This document shows, one piece after another, positions 47,875-50,433 of a DNA stretch of 64,000 bases; within the stretch, counting starts at the first letter, position 1, and each line of letters begins with the position of its first letter. The position numbers were made by a program, and so were the translations under genes. Below the pieces are notes generated by a model that saw only the letters and a program-made list of their open reading frames with translations, searched no databases and was not told the DNA's origin. The stretch comes from a virus (lineage: Duplodnaviria > Heunggongvirae > Uroviricota > Caudoviricetes). Location of the stretch: IMG/VR virus record IMGVR_UViG_2565956719_000002; one strand, written 5' to 3'.

Positions 47875-48576
47875 TTATTCTGATTCTCGCTCAAAAAATG
47901 AGCTGATAAGGGGAAGCCAATCCTCTGACACTTCGCGAGGTCGCGGTTTGCCGTGGAAAAAGATTATTCGGCAGTCTTTTGGTAATGCCCCATTCCCCCT
48001 GGAGTAACGCGCGCTCGCATATTTTGAACCAGGTTCCACAACATCGGCCTTGTAACTTACAAACCATCCTGGATACAGATCCTGAAATGCTGGTGTATCA
48101 TCGCCCATAACCTTTCGTAAGAACCCCTGGTCACCCCAGCACTCAGTAGTGACACAACGAGAAATCCAACCTTCCGGATCTTGCCAGAATGAACTCCAGA
48201 TATGCGCTTTAACACTATTTGGTATCCACAGGGCACCGCTGCCACGATATTGTGGATGGTAAAAATCCCTAAGCATGGTGAAGCTGGTTGGTGGATGCTC
48301 TAGGATTGGGCGTATATCACCGGCAATAACCGTGTCCAAATCCAGATAGAACAGATCATCGGTTATATCCGGTCGGAACAACTCGATTTTCGCCCACCAG
48401 CCACGGCACTTTTGCCACTGGTTGATCAATGGGACAACTTTGACGCCAGGTACATGTAAACGCTTCAGGTCTGTCAGGCAAATAATTTCATAGCCTTTTG
48501 GCAGTTGATTAACCAGCCACTGCACATCGGAAGCGTTATAGTCACCACCAGAGCGAAAAACTAAAGCAATCTTCAT
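47875..48576 (-). CDS. Putative glycosyltransferase (GT-A-like, DxD motif)
   Basis: 233 aa; [13 protein letters not shown]-terminus and [11 protein letters not shown] acidic motif. Confidence 0.4.
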
Positions 48577-49265
48577 GCTGCACCATCACCTTTCACTTTC
48601 ATCAATGTCAGGTTTCCGCAAAATACGGCACCAGTGTCGATATACTGCTGATTCCAGAATGTCTTCGGGCTTTTCACCGGAGTGTGGCCAAAGATAAAAC
48701 GATCTGCGCCCGAAATTTCGCCACCAATATCATCCATCGAATCACTGATACGCTCGCGCGCCCAGACAACGTTGAAAAGCGGTACCTCCTTACCGAATTG
48801 GTATTCATTATCCGGATAGTCGGCATGGGCTATAACGATAGTTTCTTGCCCGGTGTTCAACTCAATGATATAGGGCAGACGCTTTACCAGCTCCACCAGC
48901 GCCCAGGCTAATATTTCCTGATCAGTGTCCAGCATGAAGAACCATTGTCCGCCATTCATTAGCCAGTTATTCACGTTGCCATCTGGACTTAACGCATCAA
49001 TCATCAGCCGCTCATGGTTCCCCATCACTGCCCTGAACCAGGGCATCTGCAATAGTTCCAGACATTCGACATTTTCAGTACCGCGATCGATAAGGTCGCC
49101 GACCGATATCAGTAAATCCTGCGCCGGGTCAAAATCCACACGATGGAGTTCGGACATCAGTCTGGTGTAGCAACCATGCAGATCACCAACAACCCAGACA
49201 TTCCTGTATTTGGTACCGTCGATACGGTGATAAATTGAGGGTGCCATCATGTATTCTTCAGCCAT
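48573..49265 (-). CDS. Ser/Thr protein phosphatase (lambda PPase family)
   Basis: 230 aa; VVGDLHG, GDLIDRG, GNHE metallophosphatase motifs. Confidence 0.8.
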
Positions 49266-49873
49266 TCTTTAAGAGTCATCTGCGGAATACCTCCCATTTT
49301 CCCGCATGAAACAACGTCAATCCGTTCACGCGCAGACTGGAATAACAAAGGCAGGTGACTTAGATTTTTTGGCGTGCCGCCGGAGTGAACGCGTGGTTCT
49401 TGTGTAGCGTCAACGCCCACCAGGGCGACATGTTTGAATCCGATATGGAAAGCCAGGTTCAGAGCACCATATGCACTATTGCCGCTGGCAATTTCATTCT
49501 CATCTTCGCAAAGTCCGAAATGTGCGGACCAGCGCCACGCCCACCACTCGGGAGAATTCGTATTTTTTGGCTCCATGCCACGTTCAGCCACACGACGGAA
49601 GCACAGAACGCCGTCTCTGACTTCACGTTCTTTAACATCGGGTAGTGCCATGCAATAACAAACACCACGGCGACGGCGGCCACGACCAACGCGCCGCATA
49701 TTGTCTGGCGATGGATCAAGTGTGAAAAAATAAGAAGCGCGGTTCAGCCAGTCGATGGCCCCATTGACCGCTATAATCGGCACTCCGCGCGGCGCAACAA
49801 AGTTTGCGGCGCTTGGGCCACTGCCGACGATAATAACGCGATCACTGCCTCTAAATTTATTCTTGGGAAACAT
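49247..49873 (-). CDS. Hypothetical protein, paralog of 49771-50433
   Basis: 208 aa; shared VGSGPS...IAVN...NSG..A..LA...G...V.LVG.D motifs; start overlaps upstream gene by about 100 nt. Confidence 0.45.
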
Positions 49874-50433
49874 TGAATTGCACTGCTCCTACTTGCATTC
49901 AAAATATGTAAATCTGCGTGTTTTTTGCGGGTATCCAGGAACTGCTGTTGCCATTTTGAAATAGACACCTGCGTTGGATTCCGTAGGGCTTGAGGGTGCG
50001 CGCCATGCCAATGAAGGCCGTTTTGCAGAGAACAGTCATAGCCGACTAATACCACTACTTCAGCCCCTGATTCAGCAGCCAGACTGATAGCCTGCGCGCC
50101 GCTATTTACCCCTTCCGCCGGTCCACAATATCGCCTGTACTCCAACGAAAATGATTTCGCCGCCGCCAGGTTGGCTGTCACTTTGCGGAATCTCCCTCCC
50201 GGTATGGTGGATCCGTATTGCTTCCACCATGACAAATCACCGGCGTATAAGGCATAAATGTCATCGAACATCTGCCAGGAATTGTTAACCGCGATGATTG
50301 AACAGCCAGTTTTTTCTATAGCAGCACAGTCCTCACGAGTGAGTGACGGACCGCTACCGACACAAAAAACAGTCCTAGTCGCCCTGGGTGGTATGTTCAT
50401 TCTCAGCTGCAAATTCAGCCTCCAGGCGAGCAT
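49771..50433 (-). CDS. Hypothetical protein, paralog of 49247-49873
   Basis: 220-aa ORF (shorter start near 50400 possible). Confidence 0.45.
   Translation of the reverse strand: MLAWRLNLQLRMNIPPRATRTVFCVGSGPSLTREDCAAIEKTGCSIIAVNNSWQMFDDIYALYAGDLSWWKQYGSTIPGGRFRKVTANLAAAKSFSLEYRRYCGPAEGVNSGAQAISLAAESGAEVVVLVGYDCSLQNGLHWHGAHPQALRNPTQVSISKWQQQFLDTRKKHADLHILNASRSSAIQCFPRINLEAVIALLSSAVAQAPQTLLRRAECRL

Follow-up and report, generated by a model that had tools for sequence, protein, structure and literature searches.

Two neighbouring genes on the minus strand of the phage DNA analysed here (64,000 nt, IMG/VR record IMGVR_UViG_2565956719_000002, hereafter the window) share about 100 nt that are read in two different frames. 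This raises the question of whether such a long overlap is a real property of the genome, and, if so, how much of it serves both genes. In a survey that covered 338 prokaryotic genomes, no co-directional overlap longer than 60 nt proved real (PMC2478687), and a preliminary description of the present overlap, based on the letters alone, named a sequencing frameshift, programmed frameshifting and real dual coding as possible explanations. Our analysis makes it highly probable that the two genes, pmgO and pmgP, form a genuine co-directional overlap composed of an old core of ~37–40 nt and a lineage-specific run-on, in which pmgP is independently initiated and both genes encode paralogous products with a glycosyltransferase fold. 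The overlap is real and conserved, and dual constraint is limited to its first ~39 nt.

The locus corresponds to the boundary between pmgO and pmgP in a phage-plasmid of the P1 type. Nucleotide identity in the region surrounding it amounts to 98.9% with phage P1 and 97.0% with P7, while the two products share 100% (PmgO) and 99% (PmgP) identity with their P1 counterparts. Genes are arranged in the order pmgM (VRR-NUC), pmgN, pmgO, pmgP, ppp (phosphatase), pmgQ, pmgR, pmgS. Over the pmgO/pmgP stretch the window is 100% identical to the Escherichia coli plasmid pAVS0973-B, and the stretch was found in 579 of 5426 complete E. coli genomes, nearly always on plasmids of ~95 kb. The reference annotations compared were GenBank AF234172, NC_005856 and AF503408. 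In the P1 GenBank coordinates, pmgO (79592..80254) and pmgP (80152..80778) have an identical 103-nt overlap, and the P7 record annotates hdmB/hdmC with the same overlap; genes, relative coordinates and overlap all match, without material difference. The overlap is an already annotated, known feature of phage P1. The positions of the features in the window are listed in Table 1.

Table 1. Features of the pmgO/pmgP junction, in coordinates of the window.
Feature	Position	Strand	Remarks
pmgO (hdmB in P7)	49771..50433	minus	220-aa ORF
pmgP (hdmC in P7)	49247..49873	minus	208-aa ORF, paralog of PmgO
Full pmgO/pmgP overlap	49771..49873	minus	103 nt including the pmgO TAG stop
Dual-constrained core	49835..49873	minus	~39 nt, +1..+39 from the pmgP ATG
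pmgO run-on tail	49771..49834	minus	PmgO residues ~201–220 plus TAG stop
AGGAG	49886..49890	minus	likely Shine-Dalgarno sequence of pmgP, 12 nt upstream of the ATG
GTG, PmgP codon 31	49781..49783	minus	alternative start of some gene callers; judged not real
A_AAT_TTA heptamer	49852..49858	minus	formal −1 slippery site in the pmgO frame; judged chance
T_TTC_CCA heptamer	49864..49870	minus	second formal slippery site in the pmgO frame; judged chance

The preliminary description had the geometry right. The overlap is out of frame: pmgP is read at −1 with respect to pmgO, whose own frame ends at a TAG at 49773..49771. The two genes had also been called paralogous, which is borne out by profile-profile comparison (hhalign probability 97.9%, E 3.4e-13). 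Likewise, the ATG at 49873..49871 is needed for the N-terminal motif of PmgP, as had been argued, since no other ATG, GTG or TTG occurs between the in-frame stop that precedes it by 18 nt and the IIVGSGPS motif; residues 11–20 of PmgP, which include beta-strand 1 (residues 12–16), are modelled with a pLDDT of 97. The length of the shared stretch is less telling. Across the body of pmgP, the pmgO frame contains 6 stops in ~175 codons, or about one per 29 codons, so that a run-on extending ~21 codons beyond the point where conservation of PmgO ends is unremarkable. Two properties do exceed chance: the pmgP ATG keeps its place inside pmgO, and the first ~39 nt are under dual constraint.

Both properties become apparent from diverged relatives. 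A first scan of viral contigs yielded only near-identical P1 copies, which were used for population analysis and not for divergence, and the divergence scan was repeated with a non-P1 query. From gene pairs in annotated phages and in contigs of genomes, viruses and metagenomes we obtained 47 different junction sequences, in which overlap length was counted from the ATG homologous to the P1 pmgP ATG. The overlaps ranged from 4 to 133 nt (4, 13, 37, 40, 43, 49, 67, 70, 94, 100, 103, 109 and 133 nt). For instance, the overlap is 4 nt in Xanthomonas phage Xoo-sp13, where it forms an ATGA junction, 37 nt in coliphage EP_H11, 70 nt in Cronobacter phage JK004 and Salmonella-type P1 relatives, 94 nt in Citrobacter phage phiNP and 103 nt in P1. 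Except for two apparently spurious ORF calls, pmgP was in the −1 phase in all 47 junctions, and overlaps of 37–133 nt were found in many lineages at 41–80% protein identity, with the same phase and the same ATG position.

The orthologous start of pmgP in the relatives is the same ATG as in P1. It lies inside the Cys188-Phe189 codons of PmgO (xxA TGY TTY) in the 13 aligned lineages, in EP_H11 and in one Chimaeribacter contig, as it does in the window (cA ATG TTT = CAA TGT TTC). PmgP therefore begins with M-(F/L)-(P/S), because its ATG sits in the Cys-Phe codons of PmgO. The stop of pmgO, by comparison, is found at +40, +49, +67, +70 or +94 from the pmgP ATG in the relatives, and the earlier stop of JK004 is made by a change of one PmgP residue, A23L (CTGAAC). 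The preliminary description had named a shorter upstream gene or a different downstream start in homologs as findings that would speak against it. The first is indeed seen, since PmgO ends 11 to 21 codons earlier in sister lineages; the second is not, as the downstream start is conserved and an overlap of 37–70 nt persists. In Pseudescherichia, Erwinia, Buttiauxella and other contigs, a PmgP-like gene was found without a recognisable PmgO-like ORF directly upstream at the threshold used, which implies that the pair is not obligatory or that the partner is too diverged for detection.

Which part of the overlap is constrained in both frames can be read from column identity by codon position, obtained for 13 lineages aligned without gaps. 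Upstream of the pmgP ATG, identities at pmgP positions 1/2/3 were 0.37/0.52/0.68, with the least conservation at the third position of pmgO (pmgP position 1), as expected for pmgO coding only. From +1 to +39 the values were 0.60/0.79/0.65, without a wobble position, so that both frames are constrained. From +40 to +103 they changed to 0.78/0.78/0.38, with the minimum at pmgP position 3, which is position 2 of pmgO; this pattern, pmgP coding only, continues past the overlap (0.81/0.88/0.47 at +104 to +150). The suggestion of real dual coding in the preliminary description thus holds for the first ~39 nt, which are constrained in both frames, but not for +40..+103, where constraint is confined to the pmgP frame. 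The core encodes PmgO residues ~187–200, a conserved C-terminal helix of 14 residues in which C188 and F189 are nearly invariant, and at the same time residues 1–13 of PmgP, a variable leader of low model confidence. The run-on tail, in contrast, overlies the stretch of pmgP that encodes beta-strand 1 and the GSGPS loop.

The same division is visible within the P1 population. We compared 85 independent P1-like assemblies, which represent 57 haplotypes over the 1187-nt pmgO/pmgP pair. Both ORF ends and the 103-nt overlap were unchanged in all 85. Among the 57 haplotypes, the first 50 nt of the overlap contained no variable sites vs 4.8 expected (P ~0.007, a Poisson value that overstates independence because lineages share descent). 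All 7 polymorphic sites of the overlap fell in its last 53 nt, and 5 of them are silent in pmgP but change a residue of PmgO. The ratio of nonsynonymous to synonymous sites was 6:1 in the PmgO tail, compared to 10:41 over the remainder of pmgO (Fisher p = 0.0012).

The extent of the two proteins agrees with this picture. Both ORFs are intact, and homologs cover residues encoded in the overlap: homology of PmgO continues to residue ~200–202, which is 12–14 codons into the overlap, and that of PmgP starts at M1. PHROG 4603 matches PmgO residues 25–202 (E 4e-74) and PHROG 2111 matches PmgP residues 1–208 (E 4e-132). In the profile-profile alignment of the two families, PmgO 17–201 aligns with PmgP 9–205, so that PmgP stops at about PmgO residue 201. 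Neither the PHROG profile nor the paralog alignment covers PmgO past residue 202. Most PmgO homologs have 176–205 aa and end at or shortly after the motif CF(P)RxxLExx(I/L), and the residues after ~200 differ in sequence and length among lineages. Because homologs and profiles end near residue ~200, the residues of P1 PmgO beyond that point are best regarded as an addition.

The AlphaFold2 models are consistent with these boundaries. The mean pLDDT is 88 for PmgO and 94 for PmgP. In PmgO, confidence falls from 97 in the conserved C-terminal helix (residues 191–200) to 79 at the start of the tail (201–210) and 67 at its end (211–220), while the leader of PmgP (residues 1–10) has a pLDDT of 60. 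The structured end of PmgO is thus co-encoded with the floppy leader of PmgP, and beta-strand 1 and the loop of PmgP are co-encoded with the less confident tail of PmgO.

Among the alternatives, the one that fares best is that all 103 nt are functional dual coding, such that the P1-specific tail of PmgO (~201–220) has a role of its own, for example as a helix contacting PmgP. We consider this improbable. The model places helices at residues 194–207 and 209–218, with moderate confidence and no obvious disorder, so the tail comprises two helices at a pLDDT of 67–79, and since it is modelled as helix, a P1-specific role is conceivable. The stop position is also fixed in the 85 assemblies. However, P1 phages are ~97–100% identical over this stretch, and the fixed stop therefore needs no selection. 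Furthermore, several observations argue against a role of the tail: the excess of nonsynonymous variation among P1 haplotypes, the low conservation of pmgO codon position 2 across lineages, the tail being 11 to 21 codons shorter in sister lineages, and its absence from both the family profile and the paralog. The tail sequence itself (LSSAVAQAP) is simply the +1 reading of a PmgP segment of 10 residues. We therefore retain the interpretation of a core with a run-on.

How, then, is pmgP translated? The likely Shine-Dalgarno sequence AGGAG is built from the codon of the invariant Arg182 of PmgO (AGG) and the codon that follows it. Of 13 diverged lineages, 11 have a GGAG at this same distance. 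In 12 of the 13, Arg182 is encoded by AGG or CGG, two rare triplets that account for 21% of the Arg codons of these genes (binomial P ~9e-8, which is overstated since the lineages are not independent). In E. coli, the spacing of 12 nt between GGAG and ATG exceeds the optimum for initiation. Termination-reinitiation is unlikely, given the 100 nt that separate the pmgP ATG from the pmgO stop downstream of it. Judged from these sequence features, pmgP is most likely translated by independent initiation at the GGAG inside pmgO.

A different route to PmgP synthesis would be programmed frameshifting, in which a fraction of the ribosomes of the P1 lineage shifts −1 in the overlap, at A_AAT_TTA or T_TTC_CCA, to produce a PmgO-PmgP fusion beside the separate proteins. 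This had been raised in the preliminary description, and it has some appeal: pmgP is in the −1 frame, two formal X_XXY_YYZ heptamers occur in the pmgO frame, and a natural in-frame fusion of the two proteins (P0051, discussed below) indicates that a fused product is viable and might be mimicked in this way. If it were true, the long overlap would govern how many of the glycosyltransferase subunits are made separately and how many in fused form. Yet the heptamers are absent in 5 of 13 lineages (JK004, phiNP-type and three others) and shifted in position elsewhere, and by our own calculation a heptamer of this kind would turn up by chance in 33 codons with a probability of ~13%. The RNA of 49760–49960 (201 nt) showed no frameshift stimulator or RBS-masking hairpin beyond those of shuffled sequences (z = 0.85), and the GGAG, ~27 nt upstream of A_AAT_TTA, is too far upstream for a dnaX-type stimulator. 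Moreover, a shift at either site would remove the conserved C-terminal helix of PmgO, which is kept in the natural fusion, and pmgP has its own ATG and Shine-Dalgarno sequence. Frameshifting is thus very unlikely, and separate initiation of pmgP is the preferred explanation.

Slightly less likely still is that the start of PmgP is mis-set and that its true start is the GTG at 49783, which would leave an overlap of only 13 nt. A 178-aa form with this start (MPIIAVNG..., P0054) is deposited for 373 member sequences, and phiNP is annotated likewise. However, such a start would delete beta-strand 1 and the GSGPS loop (pLDDT 95–97). The residues that it would lose are homologous to the N-terminus of PmgO itself, and residues 11–30 among them are invariant or nearly so across homologs. 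In addition, the codon-position signature of pmgP continues upstream of the GTG, and M1 of PmgP is invariant in the alignments.

Finally, a sequencing or assembly frameshift that artificially extended pmgO, a cause proposed in the preliminary description and in keeping with the finding that long co-directional overlaps in cellular genomes are mostly annotation or sequencing errors (PMC2478687) and with the existence of frameshifted pmgO variants (P0002, with an A7 run replacing A6), can be dismissed for practical purposes, as the ORF ends and overlap are identical in 85 assemblies, the stretch is present in 579 complete E. coli genomes and the overlap is seen in diverged relatives too. The extra length of pmgO at its 3' end compared with its orthologs reflects a real stop position, not an error.

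The A6 run of pmgO lies at 49921–49926 on the minus strand. In the deposited variant P0002 (174 aa, 48 member sequences) the run is A7, and the resulting shift of frame ends PmgO at a TAG that overlaps the Shine-Dalgarno sequence of pmgP (gcaagTAGgag). This variant may represent a true pseudogene allele or else an error in the sequencing of the homopolymer.

A plausible history of the overlap can be proposed from the junctions described above. The ancestor was most likely an ordinary ATGA junction, as still found in Xanthomonas phage Xoo-sp13. From there, the start of pmgP would have shifted upstream and the stop of pmgO would have drifted, with the −1 phase kept throughout. The old core is the part in which the pmgP start codon is embedded in the Cys-Phe codons of the PmgO motif CFPRxxLExxI, with bases that encode both the structured end of PmgO and a variable, probably disordered leader of PmgP. 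Beyond the core, the pmgO frame continues to the next stop, in P1 64 nt further, and this run-on adds ~20 predicted PmgO residues that are dictated by pmgP and that are probably not themselves under purifying selection.

The proposed history resembles known cases. In one model, overlaps arise by 3' elongation of the upstream gene after loss or shift of its stop codon (Fonseca et al., 2013, PMC3887535), which corresponds to category iii of Palleja et al. (2008, PMC2478687). This model fits pmgO, which has a longer 3' end than its orthologs and stops that differ by lineage, and in which single base changes that alter pmgP or are silent in it create or remove pmgO stops. Unlike simple 3' elongation, the extension of pmgO tops an older overlap, with the downstream start inside the C-terminal motif of the upstream protein. 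Among co-directional overlaps, Palleja et al. (2008) accepted as real none longer than that of holD/rimI in Enterobacteria, whose length of 32–56 nt is genus-specific (PMC2478687). Like pmgO/pmgP, holD/rimI is conserved across genera and has a conserved core, a lineage-specific length and conserved protein ends. The pmgO/pmgP overlap is longer (P1, 103 nt; one relative, 133 nt), but its dual-constrained part of ~39 nt is of similar size. In contrast to holD/rimI, pmgO and pmgP are phage paralogs. The pair provides good support for a co-directional overlap beyond 60 nt, a length at which every case in the 338-genome survey turned out to be an error (PMC2478687), and it illustrates how long overlaps form, from a small dual-frame core and a run-on that is free to drift. 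The overlap is ordinary in mechanism and opens no new biological question.

The main value of these results is practical. The pmgO/pmgP locus, present in about 10% of complete E. coli genomes, is an annotation trap that automatic annotators often mishandle, and many records start PmgP at the GTG, by which it loses its first beta-strand and the GSGPS loop. In plasmid pAVS0973-B, RefSeq omits pmgO, and elsewhere it truncates pmgO at the 5' end to 166 aa; NZ_CP124473.1 was among the records compared for the annotation of the pair. Similarly, the record of JK004 is without pmgO, that of EP_H11 without pmgP, and that of phiNP without pmgO and with a truncated pmgP.

What the two proteins do can be approached from their fold. 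PF01973 (MptE-like) scored 23.4 and 21.0 bits with the two proteins, below the gathering score of 34.6, while several homologs of the two proteins carry a precomputed PF01973 match; a weak TIGR04437 match was found in addition. For the PmgO model, Foldseek ranked the Maf glycosyltransferase 5MU5 first (query TM-score 0.56, E 4.4e-4, probability 1.00), with the sialyltransferase ST6GALNAC2 next; the structural similarity is modest. PmgP bears the PGAP name 'motility associated factor glycosyltransferase family protein', and the downstream PmgQ matches a PHROG glycosyltransferase family. Profiles of PmgO and PmgP against solved structures gave only non-significant CstII matches (E of at least 0.28), and NCBIfam gave no match for PmgO, PmgP or PmgQ. 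On the basis of the models and these matches, PmgO and PmgP look like Maf/CstII-like glycosyltransferase-fold proteins. They have the Rossmann-like fold and an N-terminal GSGPS-type loop in common with Maf, CstII and WaaZ (MptE-like/DUF115 fold). In contrast to these proteins, they have only ~200 aa, the minimal domain, and stay below the Pfam gathering cut-off, and their glycosyltransferase role is predicted.

One assembled contig (Logan contig SRR30564046_80989, 4001–5131), the single contig on which this case rests, encodes a 376-aa in-frame fusion of a PmgO-like and a PmgP-like protein (P0051), with NCBIfam giving a weak WaaZ match (20 bits vs a cut-off of 200). This in-frame fusion suggests that PmgO and PmgP act together, and from sequence comparison we consider that they probably do. 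On this phage contig, the fusion gene follows a lysis cassette. The sequence GAAGGA precedes its internal ATG by 5 nt, so that the PmgP half could also be made separately.

Both genes are nonessential for plaque formation of P1, as concluded from CRISPRi (table in PMC10695390) and from the deletions of PMC9024508, as tabulated in PMC10695390. The main text of the virion proteome paper of Gonzales et al. (2022) mentions neither PmgO nor PmgP. Together with the downstream glycosyltransferase PmgQ, PmgO and PmgP form a module that is dispensable for plaque formation. PmgO-like and PmgP-like proteins and a PmgQ-like DXD glycosyltransferase recur together (window 47875–50433, minus strand), and the three-protein set is found in unrelated phages, namely P1, Citrobacter phage phiNP, coliphage EP_H11 and the Xanthomonas jumbo phage Xoo-sp13. 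By its recurrence, the set looks like a portable three-protein glycosylation module. The receptor of P1 is the LPS core. One idea is that the module modifies LPS, in view of the weak similarities to WaaZ (Kdo III transferase) and Maf.

Two further starts near the junction deserve mention. The P1-annotated start of ppp (ATG 49265, minus strand) overlaps pmgP by 19 nt (49247–49265), while an ATG at 49250 (Met6), the start chosen by RefSeq/PGAP, forms a classic ATGA junction with the pmgP stop. Homology to the lambda phosphatase presumably begins after Met7, and the true ppp may be the shorter form from ATG 49250. At the other end of the pair, pmgN is a 62-aa ORF from a GTG (51 aa in the P1 annotation), which overlaps the annotated start of pmgO by 59 nt (50375–50433, minus strand). 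Residues 1–14 of PmgO have a pLDDT below 50 and the N-termini of its relatives are shorter. Possibly, PmgO starts at Met12 (ATG 50400), which would reduce the overlap with pmgN to 26 nt.
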